Assembly (NCBI GenBank): GCA_964035575.1
Contig: OZ037833.1
Location: 1,364,001-1,428,000, forward strand
Source: Rhynchopus sp. YZ270_cl-10
Lineage: Eukaryota
Direction: 5' to 3'
DNA: 64,000 bases
The translations under genes were made by a program, and so were the position numbers. Positions 23,197 through 59,231 of this stretch are shown in pieces. Position 1 is the stretch's first letter; every line of letters starts with the position of its first letter. The notes beneath the pieces were generated by a model. The model worked only from the letters and a program-made list of their open reading frames with translations. It was not told the DNA's origin and did no database searches.

Positions 23197-23268
23197 GCTC
23201 GCGTGGCGCAATGGAAGCGCGTCGGTTCCCGACGCCGGAGGTTGCGGGTTCGATCCCCGCCGCGAGTA
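23197..23268 (+). tRNA. tRNA-Arg(CCG), atypical anticodon loop TC-CCG-AC (C33)
   Basis: Cloverleaf GCTCGCG/CGCGAGT, A and B boxes, T-run after. Confidence 0.8.
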
Positions 23269-23405
23269 CTTTTTGTTCATTCCAAAATATTTTTAGATTT
23301 CCTCCTTCTCAGAGATTTCTTGTCACAAAACTTTGCCAAATTGAAAATTCAGAAATATGAAAATATCAAAAAACAGCTCCGAAATTTGAAAGCAATCAAA
23401 AAGGA

Positions 23406-23477
23406 TTCCCCCTCCGGGGTTTGAACCCGGGTCGCCTGGGTGAAAGCCAGGTATACTAACCACTGTACTAAAGGGGA
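23406..23477 (-). tRNA. tRNA-Glu(TTC)
   Basis: Cloverleaf, loop CT-TTC-AC. Confidence 0.95.
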
Positions 23478-23574
23478 GGTGATACTTAGGCACAATCCAA
23501 AAAGGGTACTTTTGTGCAAGCTACACGGAGTTTCAAACGAAAAAAAAATTAAAAATGAAAATCCAAAAAGACAA

Positions 23575-23646
23575 GGGCTCGGCGGGGAATTGAACCCCGG
23601 ACCTCTCGCACCCTAAGCGAGAATCATGCCACTAGACCACCGAGCC
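23575..23646 (-). tRNA. tRNA-Pro(AGG)
   Basis: Cloverleaf, loop TT-AGG-GT. Confidence 0.95.
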
Positions 23647-23760
23647 ACGAATTCTCTCGCATTCTCTTCGTAACGCGGCCATAAATTTCCATCATTCCTT
23701 GTGTGTGTTTTCGTTTTGAATAAGGTCCCCATGTAAATGCTGTCTTCGCTAACAATCAGA

Positions 23761-23833
23761 TCCTCCTTGGCGCAGTCGGTAGCGCGTCAGGCTGTTAACC
23801 TGCAGGTCGTTGGTTCGAACCCAACAGGAGGAG
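23761..23833 (+). tRNA. tRNA-Asn(GTT)
   Basis: Cloverleaf, loop CT-GTT-AA. Confidence 0.95.
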
Positions 23834-24204
23834 ATTTTTCATTTTTTTGAGTTTTTGACTCAAAAACATGGGCAAAATGCCTTTATACCCTATCTAAGCA
23901 ATTAGAATGTGCTCTAAAATGCAAAAATCTTGGGAATATGGGGTTTTTGGGCACATCTGAGTTCATTGCGGGGTCGTACGATCAGATCTGAGCATCACAT
24001 AATGTCTAGAATTTTACAGGTGCAACAAACACCTGTATTTTGGTGTAACATGCATATAACCATATCTGAATACCTTAAATTTGCACGAAAATGCAAAAAT
24101 CTTGGGAATATGGGTTTTTTGAGCACATCTGAGTCAATTGCGGGGTCGTACGGTCAGATCCGAGCATCACACACTGTCTAACTGAGAAATATTTTGAAAA
24201 AAGT

Positions 24205-25030
24205 CGATTTTTTGGTGAAAATATTTTTCACAGAAAATCGAATTTTACTATTAAGATTGGCTTTGGGCATGACCCAGTAAGGTTACTATGGGCCCCATGG
24301 GACATATACACCCGAATACCAGGCCGTATTTTCAAAAAGTTGATAATCCCAGTATATGGTATGGCCCTGTGGTACGAAATTTTTGGCCGAAAAAATCGAC
24401 CAAAAAATCGTCATTTTTGGGGGTCACGGTGACAAAAAGTTGCATTTTTTCACGAAAAATGGTCGGAATGTGACTTGAATGGGCTCTAATGGGTATCGAC
24501 ATAATTTAGGTATATTATGCACATAACATACCTAAATTATGTCGATATTTCACCGGCGGAGCCGAAAAAATCGATTTTCAGGGTGTGCAAAACTGTAAAA
24601 ATGACGAAAATCGGAAAAATGACGATTTTTTGGTGAAAATATTTTTCACAGAAAATCGAATTTTACTATTAAGATTGGCTTTGGGCATGACCCAGTAAGG
24701 TTACTATGGGCCCCATGGGACATATACACCCGAATACCAGGCCGTATTTTCAAAAAGTTGATAATCCCAGTATATGGTATGGCCCTGTGGTACGAAATTT
24801 TTGGCCGAAAAAATCGACCAAAAAATCGTCATTTTTGGGGGTCACGGTGACAAAAAGTTGCATTTTTTCACGAAAAATGGTCGGAATGTGACTTGAATGG
24901 GCTCTAATGGGTATATTATGCACATAACATACCTAAATTATGTCGATATTTCACCGGCGGAGCCGAAAAAATCGATTTTCAGGGTGTGCAAAACTGTAAA
25001 AATCACCAAAATCCCAAAAATCACGATTTT
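24205..25030. repeat. ~401-418-bp tandem repeat, 2 copies (4 copies at 42960-44550)
   Basis: Identical MGPMGHIH ORFs spaced 418 bp here and 401 bp in the partner. Confidence 0.95.
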
Positions 25031-28000
25031 TTTTCAAAAATATTTTTTTCAAAAAAATCGATTTTAAAATATTGGTTTGGCTTGTGCGGGGACCTGAATC
25101 TGGGGCAACATACCCTGTGGGACATACTGGGCCCGATGCAAGGCCGATTTTTCAAAAATATGGTTGCCCCGGTAGACGGTATGGCCCTGCAGGTCAGTGC
25201 ATCGGGCCAAAAATCATGAAAAAATCATGATTTTGGGGACTGGCACCCCATGGGCACATATATCTGGGGGTGTGAAATATGCATGGAATCGACCGATTGG
25301 GGGTGTTATAGGTCCTGGGGGCCCACATGGGCCATATTTCACGCTATTGGGTCACGGGAAAGTGATTTTGACATTTTTTCATCGATTTTAGCTGTGAGAA
25401 CCCTTCAAAAACACTGATTTTGGGGTGTTTCTGAGACGGTACGCTATACCCAGGGTCATATTAGGTATTAGTCCGGTCGACTTTTTGAAAAAACGACCCC
25501 GCAATGGACTCAGGGGTGCCAGATAGTGTATATGCACCAGAATGGATTCACGGGAAAAGTCAAAATTGGGTGTCAGATACATGCTGCCATAAGTGACGAA
25601 TTTCAAAAGTTGAGATTTTTCGAAAATCAGGGTTCAGTACACGCTGTACCCAATCCTGGGGGCCAAAATTTTCAACTTTTTGAAAAAACGGGCGGTATAT
25701 GGCCCTAAAGTGTCAAAATGAGTTAATTGCGACCTCGGACGGCCTCCGGAGATGAGTAGAAGTTTATTTACTGAAAAAAAAAGTCAAAACACAGGCAAAA
25801 TCCCACCTTCCACAGGTACAGTCAAAACTTTTATCCAGATCTCATGTTTTTTCAAAAAATTTTAAATTGTTTTTATGACTAACACCTCCGAAATTTTTCC
25901 TGATAAGATGGAATATGGTCCTGTCGTAGTATGCAGTGTGTTTGCAGGCAAAAATTTGCATTTTCTCGCCCCAGACATTTTTTTATACATAAAAGTGCAT
26001 AAAGGGACCCCTGACCCCAAAATCCGGGTTCCAGCTTTTTGAAGGGGTCACCCTACAGGCCACCTCAAAAAGTTGGCCCGTAGGGCCAGCTTTTTGAAAA
26101 AACGGGGTTGCGATGTGTCCTGGGGGCCCGAAGGGCCCCCAGGACACATCGCTGGGAAAAAAATATTAGGTTTTTGGGGGTCTATATAGGGTTGCTGTGG
26201 GGGTCACATGGCCGAAAAATGGCCATTTTTGGCCTATTTTTGGCCATTTTTTTAAGGTAAAAAATCCACTTTTTTTTTGTACATCCCCTTGCCCCCGGTA
26301 AAATTTACCAAACATATGGCCCTGTTGGACATACTGGGCCCATGAGTCGGTCGCTGGATCACCAAACTAGTTGCCCTATTTGCTAAAATCATGTTTTCAG
26401 GGTCAAAAATAGGGTGTTTTTTAGGGTCAAAAATAGGGTGTTTTTCAGGGGTATGTTAACCACGTATGTGTCTTAGGGACCAAATTTTCCAGGAATGTGA
26501 ACCAATCGGGTCGCAATGGGTCCAGGGGGCCCGGAGGGCCCCCATGCAGGGAAAATTTGCAACAATCCTGGGCAATGCTGGGGGCCGATAGGGTGTGCCT
26601 ATACACGTGTTTTTACGTGTTTTTGGGCACTTTTCAGGATTTTCGAAAATTTTTGCAACACCAAAATCAAAAATTTCGGTCTAGGAGGCCCATATCTGGA
26701 AAAAATCGATATTCCAATGGCCTCATTGGGACATATTGGGCCCAGGACCCTATTTTCAGGTCCCAGGAAAAGCCAAACCAATAAAAAAAATAGCTCAGGC
26801 GACCCCCAAAAATAGGCGAAAAACAGCCATTTTTAGGGTGTTTTTTAGGGGTATTTTTACACACACAAATTGTTTACCATAGCACACCCCCAGGCTGCCT
26901 CAAAATTTTATCTTTATTTGATTTTTCCAACCCACATAGGGGTATTGGAGGCACAACTTTCACCAAGCCTGGGGAATGCGGCACTGCACACACACAACTG
27001 AAAAAGGCAAAAATCACCTGTTTTTCAAGGTGTCGCAGGGTAAATGTTGTTCCTTAAAAACCAAATTTTTTCTAAAAAATCGGCCCTGCGGGTAAAAAAA
27101 CGACACTATGGGGGGTATTCCAGGGTGTGGGGGCCCCAAAAATCCGGTTTAAGACCACGAGAGGGTCCGAATACACACCTGAGAAGGTCCCGGGGAGTAA
27201 AAAAATGGCCATTTTTGGGGGGTCAAAATCTCACTTTTTGGGGGGATGTTTGTATACCCAGTACCGACCCACTAGCTGGAATGCCCAACTTTTCGCGAAT
27301 ATGGGGGCCCGTAGGGCCCCCGGGGCCCAGGGGGCCCAAAATATCGTGTTGCAGATGCCAGGAGAACATGTTTCAATATTTTGGATACATTTTTCCATAG
27401 GGTCATTTTCAAAAGCACTGATTTTAGGGGTATTGAGCGAGGTACCCATACCCATGGGTTATCCTATATATTAGTTTTCACTCGGATGTGAAAAAACGAT
27501 GTCGCAATGGATTCAGGGGGCCCAAATAGGGTATATGGCCCAGGAAATTTTCAAAAAGTTGACCCAACCAGGTATACAGGCATACAAGCCGGTAGGTCAA
27601 CAGATAGGGTGTTTTCCGCACCCAAAATATGGGGTCATGACCATGTGGGTCAGACCTGAATTGATAAATGTTTCGCACAGGTTTTCGCGAATACCCCCTC
27701 TATTCCGAATGCGCTACAAGAGTTTTAAATATTTGGCTATTTAGATTCACTTTTAAAAACAAAATGGGTCTCCAGAACACACATGAGGTTCACATGTACC
27801 TCTACAGAAACCTTGGTTTTGGTCGGATTTTGAGGCCAATTTTTGGGTTCCCACCAATTTCCTAGGGTATACTGGGATATTGCCCGTGTGTCCAAAAGTG
27901 ATTTTTGGGGCCTTAGGACCCCGGAGAATCCATTTAACGGTCGTTTTTGCACCGGAAAGACCTATCTAGTACCCAAAAATCGAATTTTCATATTTTTGAA

Positions 28001-28665
28001 AAAGTGACCAAAAATCGACTTTTTTTGGTAACATTGTATGGCATAAATTATTCTACATAATGTGTGATGCTTGAATAAAAACTTACGACCCCATAATGTA
28101 CTCGGAACTCACCCATGTAATTGTTGAGAAAAAAAAACTTTCCGAAAAAATGAAATTTCAACCCGAATATGCACATTTGGGTCATTTTACGGCTATGTAG
28201 GTCATTTTGTATGTGTTTTTCGATTATATAGGTGATTAGGATATGTGTGATGCTCAGATTAAATCGTAAGACCCCGCAATTGACTCAAATGTGCCCAAAA
28301 ACCCTATATACCCAAGATTATTAACTTTTCCAGCATATTGGACATCCTTAGGTATGGTTATAAGCCATGATACGGCTATTGCTGGAAAAATAGCCGTAAA
28401 TTGTGGTTGGTATTGATTTCAGAAATTATGTGATGCTTAGATCATGCCATAGACGCTTTTAATGGATTCATATGAGCTCATACTACCCATATACCCCTTC
28501 AGAAGCCCCTTTTGACTCTTATGAATATCCTTATATAGGCTTCCACTTGTGCAGAACCTTCTCAGTGTACAAGATGTTAGGTACAAAAAAACCATCATAT
28601 TTTTTACACTACTGGCATGCTTCCCAGGACACGTCTGTACTCAGAACGTTGTAGAGAAAAAAGGC

Positions 28666-28777
28666 AACCAACGATTTCTAAAGCTACAGTTTCTGTACTT
28701 CATTGGTATGGAAGCATGAAGATTATATCTTCTCACACAACTTTGTCAAACATGGCCAGTCTCGAAAGAGACTGGCC
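28666..28777 (+). ncRNA. Spliced-leader (SL) RNA gene
   Basis: 40-nt exon ending CAGTTTCTGTACTTCATTG, GTATG donor, AACTTTG Sm-like site, 3' GAAA hairpin, T-run. Confidence 0.95.
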
Positions 28778-29099
28778 TTTTTTACGTTAGCATGATCGTC
28801 TTGTGCACAAGAAGCAAACCCAAAAACACACACGATTCACACATGACATAACACACAAGTGCTTACTGCACCCCATTTTTATATCGCCTGCAAAACCATA
28901 TTTGTGACACTTGTTCCCCTTCAGAAGCCACTGTTGACTCTGTCGAATATCCTTCTGTAGGATCACACTTAAGGATATTTTTATGTAGAACCTTCACAGT
29001 GACCAAGATGTCAGGTACGAAAAAGCAACCGTATTATAGACATTGGCAGAAGGCTTCCCAGAACAAGTGGGTACCTAGAACATTGTAGAGAAAAAGGGC

Positions 29100-29211
29100 A
29101 ACCAACGATTTCTAAAGCTACAGTTTCTGTACTTCATTGGTATGGAAGCATGAAGATTATATTCTTCACACAACTTTGTCAAAACATGGCCAGTTTCGAA
29201 AGAGACTGGCC
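29100..29211 (+). ncRNA. SL RNA gene
   Basis: Same exon and intron structure. Confidence 0.95.
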
Positions 29212-29518
29212 TTTTTTACGTTAACATCACCTTGTGCAAACCCAAAAAACACACATGATTCCCATGTTCTTCGAATATTTTGGTGATTAGGATATGTGTA
29301 ATGCTCAGATTAAATTGTACGACCACGCAATTGACTCAAATGAGCCCAAATATCCCGTATTCCCAAGATTTTTGGACTTTCGAGCACATTGGGCATCCTT
29401 AGGTATGTTTATAAGCCACTCTACGGCTATGTTAGAAAAAAAACCCACCATAATAATGATACATATGGCATGATTCCCAGAACATGTTGGCACTTAGAAC
29501 ATTGTAGAGAAAAAGGGC

Positions 29519-29630
29519 AACCAACGATTTCTAAAGCTACAGTTTCTGTACTTCATTGGTATGGAAGCATGAAGATTATTCTTCTCACACAACTTTGTCA
29601 AAACATGGCCAGTTTCGAAAGAGACTGGCC
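29519..29630 (+). ncRNA. SL RNA gene
   Basis: Same exon and intron structure. Confidence 0.95.
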
Positions 29631-29712
29631 TTTTTTACGTTAACACGATCGTCTTGTGCACAAGAAGCAAAAAAACCCACACAACAACAGCAGAAGTTTA
29701 GAACCACATTCA

Positions 29713-29750
29713 GACCCTGACCCAACTCCAACAAGGGGCCCCTGTCTTGT
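29713..29750 (+). promoter_or_regulatory. Upstream element CTGACCCA(C/A)CTCCAACAAG...CCCTGTCTTGT (also 30292, 30881, 31602, 34066, 46547; minus strand ~60152-60191, ~62604-62640)
   Basis: CTGACCC lies 57-59 nt upstream of U6, SRP and both vault-like paralogues. Confidence 0.75.
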
Positions 29751-29773
29751 CAACCACCTTGTGCATATATACT

Positions 29774-29878
29774 GGACCCCAGAAATGGGACATCCGTTAA
29801 AATTGGATCGATACAGAGAAGATTAGCATGGTCCCTGCGCAAGGATGACACGCATTAATCGAGAAAGTATCAACTTTT
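29774..29878 (+). ncRNA. U6: U6 snRNA
   Basis: ATACAGAGAAGATTAGCATGG...GCGCAAGGATGACACGCA, 3' T-run. Confidence 0.97.
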
Positions 29879-30097
29879 TTTTTGTCCCCCGGATCACACG
29901 TATTTTTTACACTGGTGTCTTCTTCATGCTTCCCAGACCAACACATATGTGCAGACATGCCCATCACCCACAGGTGGCAAGTGGCAGGCTGCAGTAACCC
30001 ATTGAAATATTGGTTTCAAAAAACGACCATATGGTTTATGCTACTGGCATGCTTCCCTGAGCATATACATGTCGAAAGCTGTGTAGAGAAAAAGAGC

Positions 30098-30209
30098 AAC
30101 CAACGATTTCTAAAGCTACAGTTTCTGTACTTCATTGGTATGGAAGCATGAAGATTATTCTTCTCACACAACTTTGTCAAAACATGGCCAGTTTCGAAAG
30201 AGACTGGCC
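30098..30209 (+). ncRNA. SL RNA gene
   Basis: Same exon; part of the 579-bp SL-U6 tandem unit. Confidence 0.95.
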
Positions 30210-30352
30210 TTTTTTACGTTAACACGATCGTCTTGTGCACAAGAAGCAAAAAAACCCACACAACAACAGCAGAAGTTTAGAACCACATTCAGACCCTGAC
30301 CCAACTCCAACAAGGGGCCCCTGTCTTGTCAACCACCTTGTGCATATATACT

Positions 30353-30457
30353 GGACCCCAGAAATGGGACATCCGTTAAAATTGGATCGATACAGAGAAG
30401 ATTAGCATGGTCCCTGCGCAAGGATGACACGCATTAATCGAGAAAGTATCAACTTTT
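30353..30457 (+). ncRNA. U6: U6 snRNA, second copy
   Basis: Identical, 579 bp downstream. Confidence 0.97.
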
Positions 30458-30676
30458 TTTTTGTCCCCCGGATCACACGTATTTTTTACACTGGTGTCTT
30501 CTTCATGCTTCCCAGACCAACACATATGTGCAGACATGCCCATCACCCACAGGTGGCAAGTGGCAGGCTGCAGTAACCCATTGAAATATTGGTTTCAAAA
30601 AACGACCATATGGTTTATGCTACTGGCATGCTTCCCTGAGCATATACATGTCGAAAGCTGTGTAGAGAAAAAGAGC

Positions 30677-30788
30677 AACCAACGATTTCTAAAGCTACAG
30701 TTTCTGTACTTCATTGGTATGGAAGCATGAAGATTACTCTTCTCACACAACTTTGTCAAAACATGGCCGGTTTCGAAAGAGACTGGCC
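30677..30788 (+). ncRNA. SL RNA gene
   Basis: Same exon. Confidence 0.95.
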
Positions 30789-30942
30789 TTTTTTACGTTA
30801 GCATGATTGTCTTTGTGTGTCTTTGTGCAAAGCAAAAAAAAACACACACAAGAAGTGAGGATCTTCAAAACCACGTTTTTGACCTGACCCACCTCCAACT
30901 AGACAACCCTGTCTTGTATTCCGACAATATGGTATCTATTGA

Positions 30943-31252
30943 GCCGGGATGTGTTGGCTGCATCCTGAAACCCCTAGCTTCTGGGGGGGCAAGCTTCTCC
31001 AGAACTGGGCACTCTTTGAGGTGGACCAAAGGCACCTTCAACTTCTGTGTTGATGTGTTGTCCGTGTTAGTCTACTGTCCTGTTTGCGGCCTTGGTGTAA
31101 ACCAGGGCAACAATCAGAGTGAAATGGGGTGAACCGGGCCAGGCTGGTCTCACAGAGCAGCTCATAACTCCTGCAGTGGACAGTTCAAGGATCGCAGCAC
31201 AGAGCAGAGTGAGGGTGTTTCCAACTCAATGGCTTGAACTGGAGAAGCGTTT
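30943..31252 (+). ncRNA. SRP (7SL) RNA
   Basis: 5' GCCGGG Alu-like start; GGGGTGAACCGGGCCAGG...AGCAG helix 8; helix 6 GCCTTGGT-GTAA-ACCAGGGC; GCTTCTCCAG/CTGGAGAAGC closing helix; T-run. Confidence 0.88.
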
Positions 31253-31417
31253 CTTTTTTACATTTTTCCATGTGAACATTGTTTCCACATCACCATACAC
31301 ATGTGTTGTTGATACACCCCACCACGTTGCCCAGACCATTCCTACCCACATTATTCACCACAAGTGGCATGTTTACCAGTACATGTTGGTGCTTAGAGCA
31401 ATGTTAAGAAAAAGGGC

Positions 31418-31530
31418 AACCAACGATTTCTAAAGCTACAGTTTCTGTACTTCATTGGTATGGAAGCATGAAGATTATATTCTTCTCACACAACTTTGTC
31501 AAACATGGCCAGCCTCGAAAGAGACTGGCC
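31418..31530 (+). ncRNA. SL RNA gene
   Basis: Same exon. Confidence 0.95.
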
Positions 31531-31661
31531 TTTTTTACGTCACCATGAGAAAAAACATTCACACATATGATGCATGTACAAAGTGCACAGGTGTGTGTGT
31601 CACCCTGACCCACCTCCAACAAGACAACCCTGTCTTGTTTTCCCATACTCTCCCTATGTTT

Positions 31662-31983
31662 GGGTGCTAAGTTAGTGTGCTACTTCGAAACCAAACAACT
31701 CGTTCAGCAACAGCTAAAACTTGAAAAGACCTTTCTTATCAGAAAATTCTTTACAATTTTTATGATGTGTCCTGCTGTGGGCCTGATATGGCCCAAGGCG
31801 GAACCACTTTCATATGATGTAAATCCCGTACGTTCGTACAGAATATTACCCATGATGATTATTCTTACATTAGCGTGTAACACTAATTCTGACTGCGTTC
31901 TATTTCACACTTCAAATATTAGAACTGGATGTGGGGCTGCCAGTTTACTGGTGGTCCCGATCCAGCACACAACGCAAGCACCC
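31662..31983 (+). ncRNA. Unidentified ~320-nt structured RNA, vault-RNA-like
   Basis: U6-type upstream element; GGGTGCT/AGCACCC and GTGTGCT/AGCACAC terminal stems; TACTTCGA motif; T-run; diverged paralogue at 46608. Confidence 0.65.
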
Positions 31984-32101
31984 TTTTTTATATTACCCCA
32001 CCCAGTACCCCCCCTGTGTCTGTGTTGTTGCCTAAAAAAGCATCACCTTTTACAGGCTTCCTTGTGGGGAGTGTTCGGTCAAGTGATAGTGATGAAGAAG
32101 G

Positions 32102-32170
32102 ACAGGGGCGAGTTTTCTCGTGAAATGCTTTGAAGCCTCTGACATTGAGAGGCTCGCTCCGACCTCTGTT
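32102..32170 (+). ncRNA. Candidate ~70-nt structured small RNA
   Basis: GCTTCC element ~48 nt upstream; ACAGGGG/CCTCTGT closing stem with two hairpins; T-run. Confidence 0.3.
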
Positions 32171-32267
32171 TTTAATAACCCTTACCGGTAACCACTGTGT
32201 ATGTATGGTATGTATGGTATGTATGATATGTTGCCTTTGTGTGTTTGTTTTTGTTTTGTTAAAAAAG

Positions 32268-32456
32268 AGGGTATGCCACTCCTGGATGTTGTGCAGCTCC
32301 AGGGCAACATGTGTGAACGGACCAGGTTGCCCTGGCGACCCGTCACCCCAATGAGAAATTGCGTTAATATCATCAGTGCACAAGGCACTGTATCAGATAT
32401 TAAGCTGATAAGAACAGATAATACACTTGATCTTAGCCAAAAGGCCGAGAAGGTAT
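32268..32456 (-). ncRNA. U2: U2 snRNA (branch-site recognition GUAUUA)
   Basis: ATACCTTCTCGGCCTTTTGGCTAAGATCAAGTGTATTATCTGTTCTTATCAG. Confidence 0.97.
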
Positions 32457-32606
32457 GACTTCTTTTTAGTCCATACCAAATTCGACACCCATGTACAGGG
32501 AAGCATGATGATGATCAATATTACTAGGAAACAACAAGGCAAACAGATTACACACCCATGTCACAGGGAAGTGAGCGAAGGTGATGATCAATCGTAGTAA
32601 AAACAA

Positions 32607-32748
32607 GGCCGCCGAAGCAGCTACACAAATTGCCAATGTGGCAACGCCGAAGCGGCCCATGGCGGGAATTGGGTAGTTTTCAACCAGCAATCTCTCCACA
32701 GCGTCCCTATTTGGTCATTGCTTATGGAATTATCCCGAGCGCAAGAAT
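32607..32748 (-). ncRNA. U4: U4 snRNA
   Basis: 5' TTCTTGCGC complementary to U6 GCGCAAGGA; TTGCTGGTTGAAAACT; Sm-like AATTTGTG. Confidence 0.92.
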
Positions 32749-32909
32749 ACCTCCTTTTCTCCCAGTCGTGTCACAAAGCTATGTCAACAGGGAAGCGTGT
32801 TGGGGTGGTAACATAAAGACACCACGTAAAGCTAACACACCAGAACTACCACCACCAATGTGCCTCCCTGTAGACATCTGTGCAGCCGATAGGTGGAACA
32901 AACAAGGGC

Positions 32910-33119
32910 AAGACTGTACTCTACACAGGATCTGTTTTTGAGTGCATTCGTGTTGAAGATTGTTTTCTTCGGCACAAGACCAAAGCTGGATGATGACATA
33001 GGTTGGGCATGTGCAGCATGAGCACTTGCGATGATTGTCACATACTTCTTGTATTGTTTTGTCTCTCCCCTGTATGGCGCAGGGAAGAGTACCAGGCACA
33101 GCCCTTCCACTTACAGCTT
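32910..33119 (+). ncRNA. U3: U3 snoRNA
   Basis: AAGACTGTACT...CAGGATC (boxes A'/A), GATGATGA (C'), GAGC (B), GATGA (C), AAGCTG/CAGCTT stem. Confidence 0.88.
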
Positions 33120-48870: not shown

Positions 48871-48920
48871 TAGCCTTTTTTAAGCCGGGCATGTAGAAAA
48901 CATTGTTGGAAGTAATTAGA

Positions 48921-49492: not shown

Positions 49493-49595
49493 CTCTTTTT
49501 ATGTGTTGTGTTTTCTTCTGTTTCTCTCTTTTTCTCCGTTTTGGTTGTCCTTTCTCATCGTTCTCATTTCATTTCTAATATAAATCTGTTGGCAA

Positions 49596-49677
49596 GGCAG
49601 GATGGCCGAGAGGTCTAAGGCGGAGGACTCAAGTTCCTTTCTCTTCGGAGGCGTGGGTTCAAACCCCACTCCTGTCA
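49596..49677 (+). tRNA. tRNA-Leu(CAA)
   Basis: Loop CT-CAA-GT. Confidence 0.95.
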
Positions 49678-49786
49678 CACTTTTTTCCTTCTGTTGTCCA
49701 GAATCAATTTTTCAAGGAATCAGTTTTTTCACAATTTGTTTTTTCTGTCCACATTTTTTTGTGACACAAAATCTCGAAAAAAAGAG

Positions 49787-49858
49787 GGGCTCAGCAGGGA
49801 ATCGAACCCTGGACCTCTCGCACCCAAAGCGAGAATCATGCCACTAGACCACTAAGCC
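49787..49858 (-). tRNA. tRNA-Pro(TGG)
   Basis: Loop TT-TGG-GT. Confidence 0.95.
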
Positions 49859-49979
49859 TTCGTTTTGTACCCATATTCCCATTTTCTTCTGTCCAAAATT
49901 TTTTTTATTTTGACACAGTTTTGGATTTTGGGCGGTGAATGCACACACCATCTCGTTTCTATGAACCATATAAATGTCA

Positions 49980-50053
49980 GCACCTATGGTCTAGTTGGTT
50001 ATGACGCCTCGTTAACACCGAGGAGGTCTCCGGTTCAAACCCGGATAGGTGTA
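49980..50053 (+). tRNA. tRNA-Val(AAC)
   Basis: Loop TT-AAC-AC. Confidence 0.95.
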
Positions 50054-50682
50054 CACTTCTTTTTGTGTGTTTGTTTTTTGGCCTTGTATTGCCCATTTTT
50101 TTTGGGGGTGAGAGCACATCCGCAAACACGTGTCATAATGCTAACGTTTGCGGCTGTGCTACTCTGCCAATTTTTTTGGATTTGGTGAAAAATGGTACCA
50201 AAATCAAATCCTGGAGCGATCAGTTTTTTGTTGCCGGAAGCACATGCGGAAATGGGTGGGAATTCCTTAACATTTCCACATGTGCTTCCTTTTCAGTCCT
50301 TTCCATCTCGAACGAACTTTGATCAGTGGGAACATGAAACAGACTGACTTATGTGTTATGACATAGCATCTCAGCTCAACCTGATTGCAGGCCAAAAAAT
50401 AATTTTCGGCCAAAATTTTTTTTAAGTTTTTGTTGCCAGAAGCCATATGCTGAAACTTGCACAACACACAGTGAGCTGTGCGCCCACAACGGAGGGCCTG
50501 TTCTGTGCGCCCACAATGGGGGGGTGTTCTGTGCGCCCATATCGGGGTCTGCGCTGTGCGCCCGACGTACCAAAAAATTTTCGTCCAAAAAATTGGGATG
50601 TAGTAGCACAGCGCACTTTTCCAATGTAGTAGCACAGCGCACATTGAAAATTGTTATTAGAGTTGAGGGGAAAAAAGAGAAG

Positions 50683-50699
50683 TGCCTCCACCTGGGATT

Positions 50700-50748
<49 letters not shown>

Positions 50749-50755
50749 AAGAGGC
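50683..50755 (-). tRNA. tRNA-Phe(GAA)
   Basis: Loop CT-GAA-GA. Confidence 0.95.
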
Positions 50756-50833
50756 CTTGTTTTAGGGTATGTATATTTTTTACACGGCCAACATTTTTTG
50801 AACAGGCCAAAGCCAAAGTAGTAGAAAAAGTAT

Positions 50834-50906
50834 TGGTCGTGACAGGGCTCGAACCTGGGACCGTTGGCTTATTAGACCAATGCTCTACCGACTGAGCTAC
50901 ACGACC
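50834..50906 (-). tRNA. tRNA-Ile(AAT)
   Basis: Loop CT-AAT-AA. Confidence 0.95.
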
Positions 50907-51714
50907 GACAATAATGACGAAAGGAATCGCCAACCTGGGGTACGCACTATTTTTTTCTATTGTGCACAAAACTGTACATTTTTGCATGACATCATCTTAC
51001 CGATGTTCCACAATAGCAAAATGGTCAAAAATGCGAAAACCTTGCGAAAATGGGTTATTTGGGTGCTCTTGAATCCATTATGAGGTTGAACGATGTGATT
51101 AGAGCATCAGAAGTACCCTGATCGAGTTGATGAAAATGACCCAGTAAACTGCCTATTGTACTGCCATTCCACAATGGCAAAAATGGTCAAAAAGGCGAAA
51201 ACGTTGGGAAAATGGGTTTTTTGAGCTCTCCTGAATGCATTATGAGGTCAGAATCGCAAATTGGAGCACCAGAAGTGCCCTGATCGAGTTGGCGAAAATG
51301 ACCCAGTAAAATGACTTTTGTGCCACCATTCCACGAATGGCAAAATGTTCAAAAATGTGAAAATATTGGGAAAACGGGTTATTCGGCTGCTCATGAAGCC
51401 ATTATGAGGTCAGAATCGCCAATTGGAGCATCAGAAGTGTCCTGATAGAGTTGGTTAAAATGACCCACTAAAATGCCCATTGTACCACTATTGCGCAAGA
51501 GCAAAATGCTCAAAAATGTGAAAACGTTGGGAAAATGGGTTATTCGGATGTTCCTGAACGCATTATGAGGTCAGACTCGCCAATCGGACCATCACACACA
51601 TCCTCATCGCTAAAAGACCCTCAAAATCACAGGTACGACGCAATGGTGTCAGTTCATATTTTTGTGTGTTGACTGTCCCAACCAAAAAATAATCAACAAA
51701 ATATGGCAAAAAAA

Positions 51715-51786
51715 TGGACATTGAGGGGTTCGAACCCTCGGCCTCCCGTATGCAGAACGGGCGCTCTACCACTGAGCTAAACGCCC
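51715..51786 (-). tRNA. tRNA-Ala(TGC), C33
   Basis: G3:U70; loop TC-TGC-AT. Confidence 0.93.
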
Positions 51787-51899
51787 CTGATAAATGTCCC
51801 TCAAGGAGAGGTACTTGGGGCACTTTCTGTTCGTCTTTTTGTCAATTTTTTTCAAGAACGCAACAAGCCTTGAAATTGACTCTTTCCTTTAAAACGAAT

Positions 51900-51971
51900 G
51901 CCCGCCTAGCTCAGCGGTAGAGCGTTGGACTTTTAATCCAATGGTCGTGGGTTCGATCCCCACGGCGGGTG
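51900..51971 (+). tRNA. tRNA-Lys(TTT)
   Basis: Loop CT-TTT-AA. Confidence 0.95.
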
Positions 51972-52048
51972 CCTACTTTTTTGGATCAATTGGATTCTCT
52001 TTTTTGTGCTCATTTTCAGGATCTGGGGCGTTGTGCTTCCTCAACTAT

Positions 52049-52130
52049 GCTGACGTATCCAAGTGGTTACGGAGGTGGACTTGAAATCCACTGGGCTCTG
52101 CCCGCGCAGGTTCGAACCCTGCCGTCAGCG
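52049..52130 (+). tRNA. tRNA-Ser(TGA)
   Basis: Loop CT-TGA-AA. Confidence 0.95.
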
Positions 52131-52244
52131 TTCTTTACCTTTTCGTTTGATTTCTGTGATCTATGTTTTGTCATCAAATGCAGAGATTGAAGATGTGTGT
52201 GACAAAGCTCCAAAAAATATTGAAAACACTTGGAAAAAGAAAAG

Positions 52245-52316
52245 TTCTCCCACGCGGGTTTGAACCGCGGCTACTGGATTCAAAGTCCAGGGTGCTAACC
52301 ACTACACCATAGGAGA
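52245..52316 (-). tRNA. tRNA-Gln(TTG)
   Basis: Loop CT-TTG-AA. Confidence 0.95.
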
Positions 52317-52418
52317 GATAATCCGGATCCTTTTGTTCACACAACAACGATGGAAAATTTGGTGGTTGCAGGTACACACAAGTACCCCACAATGATTCTT
52401 TGATTTAAGTTAATATGA

Positions 52419-52491
52419 GCCTCCCTAGCTCAGTCGGTAGAGCGCAAGGCCCTTAACCTTGTGGTCGCGGGTTCGAGCCCCGCGGGAGGTG
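52419..52491 (+). tRNA. tRNA-Lys(CTT), C33
   Basis: Loop CC-CTT-AA. Confidence 0.93.
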
Positions 52492-52717
52492 CTTTTTGTA
52501 TTGATACCTGAATTTTTCTGAATTTTTTTTATTTGTTGGAAAACATGGTGTGTTGGTCGTTGTGCAATGAGCCCGCCATCGTGCGAAATCGTGCCCAAAA
52601 AAAATTTTTGGTGGTCACAATTGCGATGATTTTTGGTGATCCCACCCAGACCAAATCGCACTAACTAAGTTGTTAAGCAAAGTACAAGCTTCGTCCTAAG
52701 TACTGACAGGTAATTAA

Positions 52718-52799
52718 GCGGACGTACCCAAGTGGTTACGGGGCTCGCCTGCTAAGCGAGTGTGCTCTGCATGCGCAAGTTCGAACCTTGCCGTTCGCG
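52718..52799 (+). tRNA. tRNA-Ser(GCT)
   Basis: Loop CT-GCT-AA. Confidence 0.95.
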
Positions 52800-53052
52800 T
52801 TTTTTATACACTGCATTGATACCTTTTTTCATTCTTTTCTGAACTTTTTCAAACTCAAAAAAAAACCTGAAAAAATCTGTTTTATCTTCAGGTCAAGAAT
52901 CTCCAAGTTAGGACAACATTCAAGATGTTTGGTTTTTTTGGTGAGACAACCTTGGAAATCCTGAACAATAGTTTCAACATCAAGATGACACACAACTTGG
53001 GTTTTTAGCTCAAAATCAAAAATAGAGTCAAAAACTCAAAAAAATGAAAAAT

Positions 53053-53125
53053 CTCCTCCTGTTGGGTTCGAACCAACGACCTGCAGGTTAACAGCCTGAC
53101 GCGCTACCGACTGCGCCAAGGAGGA
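53053..53125 (-). tRNA. tRNA-Asn(GTT)
   Basis: Inverted copy of 23761. Confidence 0.95.
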
Positions 53126-53239
53126 TCTGATTGTTAGCGAAGACAGCATTTACATGGGGACCTTATTCAAAACGAAAACACACACAAGGAATGATGGAAA
53201 CTTATGGCCTTGGTACGAAGAGAATGCGAGAGAATTCGT

Positions 53240-53311
53240 GGCTCGGTGGTCTAGTGGCATGATTCTCGCTTAGGGTGCGAGAGGTCCGGGGTTCAATTCC
53301 CCGCCGAGCCC
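53240..53311 (+). tRNA. tRNA-Pro(AGG)
   Basis: Inverted copy of 23575. Confidence 0.95.
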
Positions 53312-53408
53312 TTGTCTTTTTGGATTTTCATTTTTATTTATTTTTTCGTTTGAAATTCCGTGTTCCTTGCACAAAAGTACCCTTTTTGGATTGTGCCTAA
53401 GTATCACC

Positions 53409-53480
53409 TCCCCTTTAGTACAGTGGTTAGTATACCTGGCTTTCACCCAGGCGACCCGGGTTCAAACCCCGGAGGGGGAA
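53409..53480 (+). tRNA. tRNA-Glu(TTC)
   Basis: Inverted copy of 23406. Confidence 0.95.
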
Positions 53481-53617
53481 TCCTTTTTGATTGCTTTCAA
53501 ATTTCGGAGCTGTTTTTTGATATTTTCATATTTCTGAATTTTCAATTTGGCAAAGTTTTGTGACAAGAAATCTCTGAGAAGGAGGAAATCTAAAAATATT
53601 TTGGAATGAACAAAAAG

Positions 53618-53689
53618 TACTCGCGGCGGGGATCGAACCCGCAACCTCCGGCGTCGGGAACCGACGCGCTTCCATTGCGCCACGCGAGC
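53618..53689 (-). tRNA. tRNA-Arg(CCG), C33
   Basis: Inverted copy of 23197. Confidence 0.8.
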
Positions 53690-54844
53690 TTATCTTGTTT
53701 CCCAAGATCTCAGATTATGGAGAAGGTTTGGCAGTGTCTAAAAAAGTTCAAAAATTGATAAAACAGCCAGTGTCCCTTGGTGCATGACTGGTTGTACTGT
53801 GGTGGACCCGTGCACTTTCCATACAGTCCTATGCCAGAAAACCCACACACAATGGGTTTGTGGGTTTTCTACATCCACTGTACCTGTGCATAAGATAACC
53901 CATCGTGAAACTCCCTTGTGCACCCGACATACCACCCCTGGCCATATTGGTCAGGCATATTAGTAAGGGTACCTGGTCAGATCTGACCAGGCACCTGGTC
54001 ACAGTGACTGGGCACAGTAGGAACCACAGCTGAAATGGGTGGGGGCTTAAAGCCGTGTTCCAGCATGTGGTTCCTCTTTAGGTCCCAGCATGTAGTACAC
54101 CCGACATACCACAGCCCAGGCCATATTGGTAAGGCATATTAGTAGGGGCACCTGGTCACAGTGACTAGGTAGGTGCACAGAGTGGTTCCTAATCGGGCGC
54201 ACAGGGGGATATTCCTAATCGGGCGCACAGGGGGGTAAAGCTAACCGGGCGCACAGGGGGATTCCTAATCGGGCGCACAGGGGGTCGGCCCGCAAACCTG
54301 ATGATCATATTACCTCTGACCAGCGCACCGGCCATACTGACTTACATGTTTATTTACTGGGAATTTTGTGAAGAAATAAACATGTAAGTCAGGTTGGGTT
54401 TATGAACCTGTTGTAGTCCTAACCTGACTTACATGGTTATGAAAAACCTGACTTACATGGTTATTAACCCAGGGAATTTTGTGAACAAATAAACATGTAA
54501 GTCAGGTTTTTCATAAACACGTAAGTCAAGCCAAAAACATGTGGCCATACTGACTTACATGTTTATGAACTGGGATTTTTGTGAATAAATACACATGTAA
54601 GTCAGCATGGGTTTATAAACATGATCATCAAATTTTTTTTCGATTGTGACGGAAGTTGTGACTGAACTGACTTACCATGTCGAGCAAAAACCCGCATCAG
54701 ACAAAAAAAAAATTTCTCCACTAAGAATCCTTACGCAAGAAAGAGTACACATCATTTCCACTTTTTCGTTTTGAACGAGTTTGTGACCGACCTGAAACCG
54801 TCCGAAACCATATTGTTTTGCTTTTTCCAATCGCAAAAAGAGAG

Positions 54845-54915
54845 TGCGTAATCCGGGAATCGAACCCGGGCCGACCCCGTGGCGGGGGGCCATTCTACCA
54901 CTAGACCAATTACGC
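54845..54915 (-). tRNA. tRNA-Gly(GCC), C33
   Basis: GCCCC-CC-GCC-AC-GGGGT. Confidence 0.92.
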
Positions 54916-55031
54916 TACGATATTAGTCGAAATTGTGCTCGAGTTGCCGCTCGTTGCATGGTTGAAAAATATTTCACAATATCCCTCGAAATAAAACCCT
55001 TTCTGAGATCCCAATAAGTGGGAATATTCAA

Positions 55032-55103
55032 GCGGTTATGGTTTAGTGGTTAGAACACCCGTTTGTGGCACGGGAGACCCGAGTTCAATTCTCGGTAACC
55101 GCT
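55032..55103 (+). tRNA. tRNA-His(GTG), U73
   Basis: Loop TT-GTG-GC. Confidence 0.95.
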
Positions 55104-55191
55104 TTTTTAGCTGTACAATCAACCGTCTAAATTTTTTTTCAACTCCAAAAATATGCAGGCCACATAAAAAATACTATTGCCTAAAGACATG

Positions 55192-55263
55192 GACCGTGTG
55201 GCTCAATGGAAGAGCGCCTGACCACGGATCAGGCGGTTGCAGGTTCGAGTCCTGCCACGGTTG
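55192..55263 (+). tRNA. tRNA-Arg(ACG), C33
   Basis: Loop CC-ACG-GA. Confidence 0.93.
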
Positions 55264-55352
55264 CTTCTTTTTTTAGGCAATTTGAAGAATTTGAAATTAT
55301 TTTCATTTTGAAATCGCCCCTCACAAAGAAAACACTTTGCATGAAAGTAACA

Positions 55353-55424
55353 GCACTTATGGTATAACGGTTAGTATTCTCGCCTTCCAAGCGAGCGGCC
55401 CGGGTTCGACTCCCGGTAAGTGCA
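55353..55424 (+). tRNA. tRNA-Gly(TCC)
   Basis: Loop CT-TCC-AA. Confidence 0.95.
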
Positions 55425-55712
55425 GTTCTTTTTTTAAAGGGGGAAGCAAAATTTTCATGTTCAGAAAATTTTTTCTGAAATGTCAGCTTTTCAAAGAATT
55501 TCCAGTTTTCAAGTTTTTCCTTCAAAAATTTTTCAAGGTTCTTATGGGTGGGTTGACTACCAAAAAATCCAAAATCCCGGGGTGACCCCTTCCCACTGGA
55601 CCCAATGTTTTTATCTGTTGTGACTGTAACTTGTCACTGTAATTCATTTGACACCAACCTCTCACTTTTTTGTGTTTTCAAAAAAGTTCAAAAAAACAAT
55701 GTTCAAAAAGTT

Positions 55713-55785
55713 AACCCCGTGCGGGACTCGAACCCGCAACCTTTGGATTCGAAGTCCAACGCGCTATCCATTGCGCCAACGGGGC
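55713..55785 (-). tRNA. tRNA-Arg(TCG)
   Basis: Loop CT-TCG-AA. Confidence 0.95.
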
Positions 55786-55847
55786 CTGATTTGATTTTCA
55801 TCAGAAAAGAAACGAAACAATGAGTGGGAGCCCTGTACAAAAAAGAA

Positions 55848-55919
55848 TTCCCCGGCCGGGAATTGAACCCGGGTCTTCCGCGTGACAGGCGGAAATACTG
55901 ACCTCTATACTACCGAGGA
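55848..55919 (-). tRNA. tRNA-Asp(GTC), A73
   Basis: Same as 49421. Confidence 0.95.
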
Positions 55920-56018
55920 TACAATCTTCACTCTGATTTATTTTCGCGGATTAAAATGGTCTAAAATGAGCACAGAAATGACGAAAATGCATGAAAATTT
56001 GTGAACAAAAAAATGAAT

Positions 56019-56100
56019 CGCAGTCGGCAGGACTTGAACCTGCGCGGGCAGAGCCCAATGGATTTCTAGTCCACCTCCGTAACCACTTGGATACGACTGC
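56019..56100 (-). tRNA. tRNA-Ser(AGA)
   Basis: Loop CT-AGA-AA. Confidence 0.95.
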
Positions 56101-56178
56101 TGTAATTCTCACCGTTCTTTGTTTTTAGGCAGTCATCTGTTTGCAGAAAATAATCTGGAACACGAAAACGAAAAAAAA

Positions 56179-56262
56179 TCCTCTCGGCCGGAATCGAACC
56201 AGCGACCGCTCGATAACCGAGTATTCTACAGTCGAGCGCTCTACCAATTGAGCTACGAGAGG
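56179..56262 (-). tRNA. tRNA-Tyr(GTA) with an 11-nt intron
   Basis: C1:G72; CT-GTA-G then intron AATACTCGGTT. Confidence 0.93.
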
Positions 56263-56386
56263 TTCTACAACTGTCATTGTTTTCACAGAAGCCCATAAAA
56301 TTTTTTGGCTCAAAAAAATTTTTTTGCCACACAAACCTGTAGAAATTTGCACCCCATGTATTTCTTAATGATACGATAATATCAAG

Positions 56387-56459
56387 GCGAGGTTGGCGCA
56401 GTCGGGAGCGCGTAGGTCCCATAATCCTAAGGTCGTCAGTTCGATCCTGGCACCTCGCA
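56387..56459 (+). tRNA. tRNA-Met(CAT) elongator, C33
   Basis: Inverted copy of 37785. Confidence 0.93.
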
Positions 56460-56544
56460 CTTTTTTGTGTGTCTTTTTCCTTTGTGTGGGATTTTCAGCA
56501 AAATTTCCACCTTCATGCTAAACGCATTGAAGCCCTAAATCATG

Positions 56545-56615
56545 GGCCCTATGGTGTAGCGGTAGCACTATGGATTCCAAATCCATCAACGGCGGTTCGA
56601 TTCCGTCTAGGGTCA
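56545..56615 (+). tRNA. tRNA-Trp(CCA)
   Basis: Inverted copy of 37629. Confidence 0.88.
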
Positions 56616-56697
56616 TTTCTTTTTTTACACACTTTCCTTTCTGTGTTGTCTTGAAAAACTTCTTCGCAGGAGAAACAGCAAAAGCATCTTAATCAGC

Positions 56698-56769
56698 GGC
56701 GATTTAGCTCAGTGGCAGAGCATTGGTCTTGTAAACCAAGGGTCGGGGGTTCGATCCCCCCAGTTGCCT
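56698..56769 (+). tRNA. tRNA-Thr(TGT)
   Basis: Inverted copy of 37475. Confidence 0.95.
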
Positions 56770-57584
56770 TTCTATTTTTTGGTGATGTGATGTGATGTGG
56801 TTGTGCTGAAGAAGCAGCAACTGAGCACTGGATGTGACAGGCAGGAACGCAGAAGGGAGATGGCCTGGCCGTACTCCAGTACAGGCCCGAGCGAGTGCTC
56901 ACAGAATGGGCTCCAAAAACCAGCACAGAATGGAATGGCTGGAGACTTATAGGCTTACTGTAAGGATTTGTTAGGAGTGGAAAAAAAAACTCCTGACCCG
57001 GGTATTGAATTTTCAGATCATTTTCTCAGTCACAATGCAAGCACAGAATGGAAACGAAAAACCAGCACAGAATGGAATGGCTGGAGTCTTATAGCCGTGT
57101 TCCATTCTGTGCTTGGTTTTGGTTTCCATTCTGTGCTTGCATTGTGACTGAGAAAATGATCCGAAAATTCAATAGCCAGGTCAGGAGTTTTTCCATCTGA
57201 ATTATGGATTGCTAAGGATTTCCCAGCCATTCCATTCTGTGCTGGATTCCACCATTCTGTACTGGTGAGTCGCCAAGAAGCGGCAGCTGAGCACACTGGA
57301 CATGCCCAGAAAGGAGATAAGTTGTGGGGCTGAAACGTGCTATCCCCAGCAAAAGGGTCTGGCACTTTTCGCGAGTGGAAGCAGTTCACACCTGGTTGAA
57401 CGCAAAACCTACACCGGTCGGTGGGAGTCCTGTGTTGGTTCGGAAAACACATATTTTCACCCAAATTCCACTCTCAACTTGCCAACGAAACAGAACTGAG
57501 ATCAAGTGGAGGAAATATTTTTTGGTTTTCATTTGCCTCAAAATCTCAGAAACCTGCAAAATCGTAAACATTCAAAAAGAAAAG

Positions 57585-57657
57585 CACCTCCCGCGGGGCT
57601 CGAACCCGCGACCACAAGGTTAAGGGCCTTGCGCTCTACCGACTGAGCTAGGGAGGC
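57585..57657 (-). tRNA. tRNA-Lys(CTT), C33
   Basis: Inverted copy of 36605. Confidence 0.93.
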
Positions 57658-57765
57658 TCACATTCATTTAAACCAAAGAATCATTGTGGGGGGTGGTCAT
57701 GCAGAAAAGTCTCTTGTCCTAAATTTGACCACCCCAGAGAAAAGGAAAGAAGGTAAAACTATTAG

Positions 57766-57838
57766 GCCCGTGTAGCCCAATGGATAAGGCGTTCGCTTCC
57801 TAAGCGAAAGATTGTGGGTTCGATCCCCACCATGGGTA
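57766..57838 (+). tRNA. tRNA-Arg(CCT)
   Basis: Inverted copy of 36426. Confidence 0.95.
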
Positions 57839-58052
57839 TTCTCTTTTTCACTGGGAAGTGAAAATATGGAAAATGATTTTTCAAGATTCTCTCACCATCT
57901 TGGGATTTTGGTGACAACAAAGATATGGCAAAATACTTTCACAAAAATGCACTTTTCCAAACTTCCTCATCTTGGGATTTTGGTGGTCGAAAAGATGTGG
58001 AAATAATTTTTCTAAACAATTCCCAAGCAAGAAACTACCTAAATAAAAAGAG

Positions 58053-58124
58053 GGGCTCAGCAGGGAATCGAACCCTGGACCTCTCGCACCCGAAGCGAGA
58101 ATCATGCCACTAGACCACTAAGCC
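58053..58124 (-). tRNA. tRNA-Pro(CGG)
   Basis: Inverted copy of 36140. Confidence 0.95.
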
Positions 58125-58218
58125 ACTGATTATTTTCTTCATCCAGATTTACATGATGGCGTTAATATTCAAAAGTCAGAAATTCTTCTCTCCAAAACTT
58201 GGTCTAAAAAAAGGTATT

Positions 58219-58290
58219 TTCCGCTGCGGGGAATTGAACCCCGGTCTGCCGGGTGAGAGCCGGCTGTTCTAACCACTATACTACAGCGGA
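58219..58290 (-). tRNA. tRNA-Glu(CTC)
   Basis: Inverted copy of 35974. Confidence 0.95.
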
Positions 58291-58380
58291 TCTGATAGTA
58301 GGCAAAACTATTATCTGCATGGGGACATCTTTTCGATCGTTGCATTGAACGAAAATGTGAAGGAAAGTTCAAAAAGAAAT

Positions 58381-58453
58381 TACAGCTAGTCGGGATTGAA
58401 CCGACGATCTCTCGCGTGTGAGGCGAGCGTCCTAACCACTAGACGATAGCTGC
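58381..58453 (-). tRNA. tRNA-Val(CAC)
   Basis: Inverted copy of 35811. Confidence 0.95.
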
Positions 58454-58517
58454 TACAATAATGACCGGAACTGTTTTCCACAAGAGGTGGGTTTTCTGCG
58501 GAAAAATGGTAATAACG

Positions 58518-58599
58518 TGACGAGAGTGGGGTTTGAACCCACGCCTCCGAAGAGACCAGGGCCTAAACCTGGCGCCTTAGACCGCTCGGCCATCTCGCC
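58518..58599 (-). tRNA. tRNA-Leu(TAG)
   Basis: Inverted copy of 35665. Confidence 0.95.
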
Positions 58600-58658
58600 T
58601 TCCCAGTTTTTTCTGACTTTTGCAAAGAACAGAAAATGGTTTGAGAAGGGAAAAAAGT

Positions 58659-58731
58659 CTCCTCCTGTTGGGTTCGAACCAACGACCTGCAGGTTAACAG
58701 CCTGACGCGCTACCGACTGCGCCAAGGAGGA
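58659..58731 (-). tRNA. tRNA-Asn(GTT)
   Basis: Inverted copy of 35533. Confidence 0.95.
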
Positions 58732-58820
58732 CCTGACAAGTGTGCTTTTTGTGTTTTGCACAATCTTGAAAACAAAACAAAAGGGATAGATTGAAAATGA
58801 AAATGAAAAAGAATAACAAG

Positions 58821-58902
58821 TGACGAGAGTGGGGTTTGAACCCACGCCCCCGAAGGGACCAGGGCCTTAACCTGGCGCCTTAGACCACTCGGCCATCTCG
58901 CC
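58821..58902 (-). tRNA. tRNA-Leu(AAG)
   Basis: Inverted copy of 35362. Confidence 0.95.
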
Positions 58903-58995
58903 TTCAATAAAAGCCAACAAGAATATGGAAGTGGGAATGCGTTTCAACCAGTCACAGAGGAGAATAACAAGGGACGAAACGGAGAAAAAGGAAAG

Positions 58996-59067
58996 TTCTC
59001 CTACGCGGATTCGAACCGCGGTCGCGAGATTCAGAGTCTCGAGTGCTAACCACTACACCATAGGAGA
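58996..59067 (-). tRNA. tRNA-Gln(CTG)
   Basis: Inverted copy of 35197. Confidence 0.95.
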
Positions 59068-59158
59068 TACAATTCTGTCGCTTCCTTCTTTTTCTTTGGT
59101 ACCAAAAAGAATTGAGATCTGGAAATATCACAACAGTGTTTCCAAGCCAAAAAATGTT

Positions 59159-59231
59159 TGGAGATTGAGGGTATCGATCCCTCTACCTCTCGCATGCTGA
59201 GCGAGCGCTCTACCATTTGAGCTAAACCCCC
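59159..59231 (-). tRNA. tRNA-Ala(AGC), C33
   Basis: Inverted copy of 35033. Confidence 0.93.

Follow-up and report, generated by a model that had tools for sequence, protein, structure and literature searches.

The base at position 33 of tRNA genes switches between C and T across a likely diplonemid clade: candidate C33-to-U33 editing

Textbooks on translation treat uridine at position 33 of tRNA (U33) as invariant. The base at this position forms the U-turn of the anticodon loop (PMC5041475). Natural tRNAs described with another base are the initiator tRNA-Met of animals and plants and tRNA-Leu(GAG) of Saccharomyces cerevisiae, both with C33, and the tRNA-Ser(CAG) of Candida, with G33 (PMC9023262, PMC5041475, bioRxiv 10.64898/2026.02.20.707122). 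At other positions, a C encoded in the gene is known to be changed in the tRNA. In the archaeon Methanopyrus kandleri, C8-to-U8 editing by CDAT8 concerns 30 of 34 tRNA genes (PMC3695527, PMC11802342), and in Trypanosoma brucei, ADAT2/3 together with Trm140 converts C32 to 3-methyluridine (m3U32) in tRNA-Thr, while TbmCDAT converts C34 to U34 in mitochondrial tRNA-Trp (PMC11802342, PMC8677022, PMC6382703). Here we analyze a tRNA gene cluster from Rhynchopus sp. YZ270_cl-10 (assembly GCA_964035575.1, contig OZ037833.1, positions 1,364,001 to 1,428,000; these 64,000 nucleotides are called the window below), in which many genes encode C33. The observation is real and clade-wide, and comparison of gene sequences inclines us to editing of C33 to U rather than tolerance of an unedited C.

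ARAGORN found 66 tRNA genes in the window, 51 with T33 and 15 with C33 (Table 1). They represent 44 anticodons plus the initiator Met, without Leu-UAA and without selenocysteine (Sec). C33 is present in 10 of these 45 types, i.e., Ala-AGC (two genes), Ala-CGC, Ala-TGC, Arg-ACG, Arg-CCG (two), Gly-GCC, Lys-CTT (three), Thr-AGT, Thr-CGT and the elongator Met (two). Duplicates of each C33 type, with copies on both strands, always have the same base at 33, and no U33 copy of any of the ten types was found within the window. The genes have what is expected of functional nuclear tRNA genes transcribed by RNA polymerase III (Pol III, type 2): the cloverleaf, the A and B boxes, the other invariant bases and a T-run terminator. 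Scores with the Rfam tRNA model range from 53 to 74 bits across all 66 genes; T8, a pyrimidine at 32 and a purine at 37 are retained in all 45 types; and a run of four or more T lies within 25 nucleotides (nt) downstream of 15/15 C33 genes. An earlier note on this DNA had listed the ten types, with all duplicates in agreement, as the sole genes for their anticodons here and as otherwise intact, and checking gene by gene bears this out. It had also set the U33 of the initiator Met against the animal and plant pattern; the U33 is there, but it loses its significance, since U33 is the usual state in bacteria and yeasts (PMC8887486) and both C33 and T33 occur in the initiator of the relatives described below. 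Contigs of an independent run (X1), taken as DNA because the spacers are covered too, span all 30 bins of positions 47000-49250, and among the differences listed none falls at the C33 sites 47099, 47247 and 47590 (3 of the 15 C33 genes compared). Two further runs, X12 and X14, yielded scattered pieces of related DNA, with one difference in Thr-AGT in X14; neither bears on editing.

To recover relatives, metagenome contigs were scanned with the Ser D-arm pattern of this lineage, permitting C or T at 33, so that the scan was neutral with respect to the base at this position (N33). Among the 32 loci retrieved, 17 were compact tRNA clusters, with 86-91% identity to the window and 89-100% identity to one another in the tRNAs shared; a near-identical spliced-leader (SL) exon is present in 7 of the 17. 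The other 15 were excluded, ten as prokaryotic- or phage-looking and five as small kinetoplastid-like loci (a label given by judgement); the latter have T33 in 14/14 genes. After merging near-duplicate assemblies, the 17 clusters make up 12 lineages. Leaving Sec aside, C33 appears in 115 of their 245 distinct alleles, and 36 of 46 types show it somewhere, with different isotypes carrying it in each lineage. The count varies from cluster to cluster (23/46 genes in L033, 20/45 in L010, 17/27 in L017 and 2/16 in L027), and a few relatives contain both alleles of a type (L010 for Ala-AGC, L007 for Gln-CTG). Where one lineage was assembled independently, the assemblies are concordant at N33 (44/44 for L010 and L022, 32/32 for L025 and L033), so the variation is not noise. 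The presence of C33 in relatives also excludes pseudogenes and errors of assembly as its source. The trait is thus clade-wide in a likely diplonemid clade and extremely labile, and the ten C33 types of the window are not a special set. According to the earlier note, C33 that is already common in relatives would reduce novelty; these relatives are unannotated metagenome contigs, and novelty is not lowered. Scanning GTDB with the initiator pattern gave 0 matches, and a viral scan with the Ser pattern gave two phage loci, with C33 in 2/33.

The rate of change sets position 33 apart. On a tree built from tRNA positions with 33-36 left out, 617 parsimony changes were counted at 62 positions. Position 33 has 56 of them, spread over 33 of 43 types, and is the most variable position of the tRNA; the next one has 29 changes. 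There are 2 changes each at 32, 37 and 38, 6 at position 60, 9 at 59 and 10 at 16; that is, the anticodon loop is not generally relaxed, and a single site is. Within a tight group of lineages (clade A), position 33 accounts for 24 of 88 changes. Between L007 and L017, N33 differs in 5 of 14 sites and other tRNA positions in 1 of 955, with flanks at random identity. In four syntenic pairs, N33 differs at 3/33, spacer transitions at 45/541 and other tRNA sites at 13/2433 (4 of 20 pairs, picked for most aligned spacer, with L007 used twice, and numbers are small); N33 thus changes at about the neutral transition rate of spacers, not above it. The C33 genes are conserved like the U33 genes across lineages with randomized spacers. 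C or T occupies the site in 393 of 394 alleles, the remaining one being a G.

What predicts the state in the relatives is the DNA context. The C share rises with the length of the T-run that T33 would form (34/124, 38/66, 32/44 and 11/11 as the run grows from 1 to 4). Tested on the tree, the length of the run alone has p 1.3e-4, and together with A34 it has p 2e-5. The dinucleotide TA is strongly depleted in the spacers of these relatives (observed/expected 0.22). Neither anticodon strength, a purine at 35, the class with N6-threonylcarbamoyladenosine (t6A) nor the family box predicts N33 across the clade, and 20 single-base tests confined to the window gave no significant result. The rule "G/C at both 35 and 36" seen in the window (p 0.013) failed clade-wide (p 0.34), and once the DNA-context terms were included, nothing was added by G+C at 35/36 (p 0.78) or a purine at 35 (p 0.14). 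The seven types that are never C33, about 14% (Asn, Gly-CCC, Phe, Ser-GCT, Trp, Tyr and Val-CAC), are significant as a class alone (p 0.001-0.01) and not after context (p 0.44). A queuosine rule was also discarded: His has C33 in 5/7 lineages, yet Asp in 1/5. Selection acting on the RNA does not appear to see N33.

We find it simplest to suppose that C33 and T33 genes give rise to identical mature tRNAs, because N33 is less constrained than bases without a known general role, its neighbors are fixed and its state tracks DNA context. A candidate tRNA cytidine deaminase would convert C33 to U33 during maturation, and the finished tRNA would keep its U-turn. Site 33 would then be hidden from selection at the RNA level, and the base in the gene would follow mutation bias and selection on transcription, C being preferred where T would extend an internal T-run readable as a terminator by Pol III. 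Pol III terminates at T-runs. In L007, L010, L017, L024 and L034, the runs downstream of tRNA genes are mostly just 3-4 T, very short putative terminators; with downstream runs of this length in clade A, transcription could also end at an internal TTT or TTTT. The C/T pair that fills 393 of 394 alleles is also the very pair that a deaminase equates. Lys-UUU, a weak-pairing tRNA of the t6A type, has C33 in 7/8 lineages although C33 blocks t6A formation by the yeast and E. coli enzymes (PMC8887486), and we count this for editing as well. Candidate enzymes are ADAT2/3 or deaminases of the mitochondrial CDAT type, the editors of the neighboring positions 32 and 34 in trypanosomes. The authors of the Diplonema papillatum genome suggest a C-to-U activity by ADAT2/3 (PMC10161547), and Diplonema mitochondria are reported to contain a cytidine deaminase (PMC12699882). 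No tRNA deaminase is listed in the published diplonemid gene-gain tables, where an expanded THUMP-domain family is a weak lead only. On balance, it seems somewhat more probable than not that these eukaryotes possess a deaminase that acts on tRNAs in general and turns C33 into U33. Through it, the anticodon-loop base that is conserved above all others would have become the one evolving fastest in the tRNA genes, and the genes would be able to escape internal Pol III terminators. The earlier note had named the right pair of alternatives, deaminase or tolerance; the comparative evidence leans to the former. It had missed the clade-wide lability and the prediction by DNA context (T-runs and a following A) in relatives.

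Several observations weigh against this reading. We infer editing from gene sequences alone, and the DNA-context rule is a post hoc one, which about 19 other comparisons had preceded. The window itself does not follow the T-run rule (5/20, 2/16, 2/7 and 1/2); there, runs of T5-7 lie downstream of 65 of 66 tRNA genes, and spacer G+C is 0.34. L033 has mostly downstream runs of T5 or more, yet half of its genes have C33, and the cause must therefore include more than short terminators. The fitted C share without T-run or A34 is about 0.24, versus 0.42-0.50 in spacers, so C keeps a small cost, and seven types never take it. A tRNA-Thr(UGU) of L013, found in one contig only, has G33 together with G38 opposite C32, which is beyond repair by any deaminase. 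Finally, yeast tRNA-Leu(GAG) functions with an unedited C33 with only a minor effect (bioRxiv 10.64898/2026.02.20.707122), and C33 is accepted by human and nematode KEOPS (PMC8887486).

Part of this would be better explained if C33 were kept in the mature tRNA and the ribosome, synthetases and loop-modifying enzymes of the clade had lost their preference for U33, leaving the site to drift between pyrimidines, a change perhaps first forced by short Pol III terminators in T-rich anticodons. The single G33 allele, the residual lean to U with its seven never-C types, and the unedited C33 that works in yeast tRNA-Leu(GAG) and in animal and plant initiators all fit such a history, and we consider it a serious possibility, if short of an even chance. 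It would demand that C and U at the U-turn base interchange more freely than the bases at 16, 20, 47, 59 and 60, in 36 of 46 types, that anticodon strength leave no trace, and that several separate machineries relax, as opposed to one gain for editing. A second idea, repeated selection of C33 as an escape from viral or bacterial anticodon nucleases with reversion once the pressure lifts, draws on a giant-virus contig bearing the SL exon of the clade, so that viruses likely infect it. We hold this to be very improbable: N33 changes no faster than spacer transitions, the flips affect most isotypes and not a targeted few, DNA context predicts the state, and no tRNA-nuclease family was found in 94 viral open reading frames (ORFs) from the part of the contig scanned. 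Least credible of all is that U33 copies elsewhere do the work and that the genes with C33 are either errors of assembly or copies that are silent or of minor importance. Our gene count covers the window, U33 copies could exist elsewhere, and a few relatives hold both alleles, but the cluster of the window is a complete set, C33 genes show the same conservation as U33 genes, and independent assemblies agree.

The genes around the tRNAs point to the host. Almost the whole complement of Pol III-type and small RNA genes (the full tRNA set, 5S, signal recognition particle (SRP) RNA, small nuclear RNAs (snRNAs) and SL) is gathered in one cluster, at 23197-63250 in the window, and no credible protein gene was found in the window. 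Its 12 SL exons with GT donors support the affiliation to Euglenozoa guessed in the earlier note. The SL exon closely resembles the "Euglenozoa 14" entry of PMC3795323, which in the part available to us leaves the species unnamed. No publication naming the exact exon was found in our literature search. We take "Euglenozoa 14" to be the SL exon of Diplonema. The U2, U4, U5 and U6 snRNAs of the window are full-length; those of kinetoplastids are shorter. Full-length snRNAs and the missing tRNA-Leu(UAA) fit an assignment to Diplonemea (PMC10161547). Neither the window nor the related loci contain an 18S rRNA gene or a protein suited to phylogeny. The host is likely a diplonemid.

Table 1. Coordinates of tRNA and other small RNA genes in the window
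Feature	Position	Strand	Remarks
tRNA-Arg(CCG)	23197..23269	+	C33 at 23228
tRNA-Ala(AGC)	35033..35105	+	C33 at 35065
tRNA-Lys(CTT)	36605..36678	+	C33 at 36637
Elongator tRNA-Met	37784..37857	-	C33 at 37825
tRNA-Thr(CGT)	47059..47130	-	C33 at 47099
tRNA-Ala(CGC)	47206..47278	-	C33 at 47247
tRNA-Thr(AGT)	47558..47630	+	C33 at 47590
Initiator tRNA-Met	48921..48993	+	T33, comparison gene
tRNA-Ala(TGC)	51715..51786	-	C33 at 51755
tRNA-Lys(CTT)	52419..52492	+	C33 at 52451
tRNA-Arg(CCG)	53617..53689	-	C33 at 53658
tRNA-Gly(GCC)	54844..54915	-	C33 at 54884
tRNA-Arg(ACG)	55192..55264	+	C33 at 55223
tRNA-Tyr(GTA)	56179..56262	-	11-nt intron, T33
Elongator tRNA-Met	56387..56460	+	C33 at 56419
tRNA-Lys(CTT)	57584..57657	-	C33 at 57625
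tRNA-Ala(AGC)	59159..59231	-	C33 at 59199
Whole tRNA cluster	23197..59397		66 genes; partly duplicated as inverted repeats, e.g., 31373-37920 vs 62859-56323, 98%
Six SL RNA genes (40-nt exon, then GT), two U6, one SRP RNA	28666..31457	+	Lineage markers
Six further SL exons	37978-39305 and 62775-63250	-	
U2, U4, U5 snRNA and 5S rRNA genes	32266..34777		Repeated at 59480-61994

Other features of these loci deserve mention. In the window and in all relatives listed, a U27-C43 mismatch shortens the anticodon stem of tRNA-Asn (e.g., 23761-23833) to 4 bp. At positions 7152-22003, an 8-bp unit is repeated perfectly in tandem 1856 times (14.85 kb), and smaller 7-bp arrays lie at 657-1167 and 4148-4420. 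Among the relatives, L010, L024 and L033 pack about 45 tRNA genes into 5 kb; the order of the genes is shuffled, and the median spacer measures 17-35 nt. Genes for Leu-UAG, Val-UAC, Leu-UAA and Ile-AAU were found in none of the 17 related loci, including the near-complete L010 and L033, and may lie off-contig; these loci carry Ile-GAU in place of Ile-AAU. L035-L042 are a single IMG/VR contig of 237,777 bases from a giant virus, with matches to the nucleocytoplasmic large DNA virus (NCLDV) capsid, VLTF3 and A32 (the capsid ORF is at L036:959-3112, minus strand). It contains at least 10 copies of the SL exon of the clade, all of which lack the GT donor and precede an ORF by 35-76 nt. They are likely retro-copied trans-spliced mRNAs and point to a host in this clade.

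Why U33 is so conserved when C33 is nearly as good in the laboratory is a standing question. If U is restored, the clade would have a new broad-specificity deaminase of the anticodon loop, and editing would free the base in the gene to follow pressures at the DNA level. If C stays, a eukaryote would translate with up to half of its tRNAs lacking the U-turn uridine, a natural system in which to study what enforces U33. Predictors of tRNA genes that penalize C33 would also under-call such genes.

Clade-wide C33 or C33 editing in eukaryotes was not reported in any publication found in our literature search, which reached few subscription papers, and nothing on position 33 was found in the available parts of PMC12153298 (one supplement included) and PMC10275265. 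D. papillatum has 211 tRNA genes with 46 anticodons and no tRNA-Leu(UAA), and its SL RNA is linked to 5S and U2 (PMC10161547). It resembles the window in the absence of Leu(UAA) and in the linkage of SL with 5S and U2; position 33 goes unmentioned in the main text of that paper, as far as available to us. The natural C33 and G33 tRNAs share functionality without U33, but they are single fixed exceptions per genome, whereas here C33 is found in at least one lineage for 36 of 46 types, and its share reaches about 60% of the genes in one cluster. The T. brucei systems have in common with the proposed one a C-to-U deamination in the anticodon loop, within Euglenozoa and on either side of position 33; they differ in acting on one or three tRNAs, at position 32 or 34, with a U33 that is genome-encoded (and thiolated in mitochondrial Trp). 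The likeness to M. kandleri lies in the many tRNA genes that encode C at an otherwise invariant U (15/66 in the window, 115/245 alleles in relatives), and its single deaminase restoring U is a model for how the C33 case would work. Unlike there, position 8 is intact here, with T8 in all 45 types, and the C lies at 33. The C33 case is therefore not a member of the CDAT8 system, although it would work in a CDAT8-like manner if editing takes place. In our estimate, the odds tilt slightly towards C33-to-U33 editing, which would give the archaeal editing of C8 a first counterpart in eukaryotes, with a new target position.

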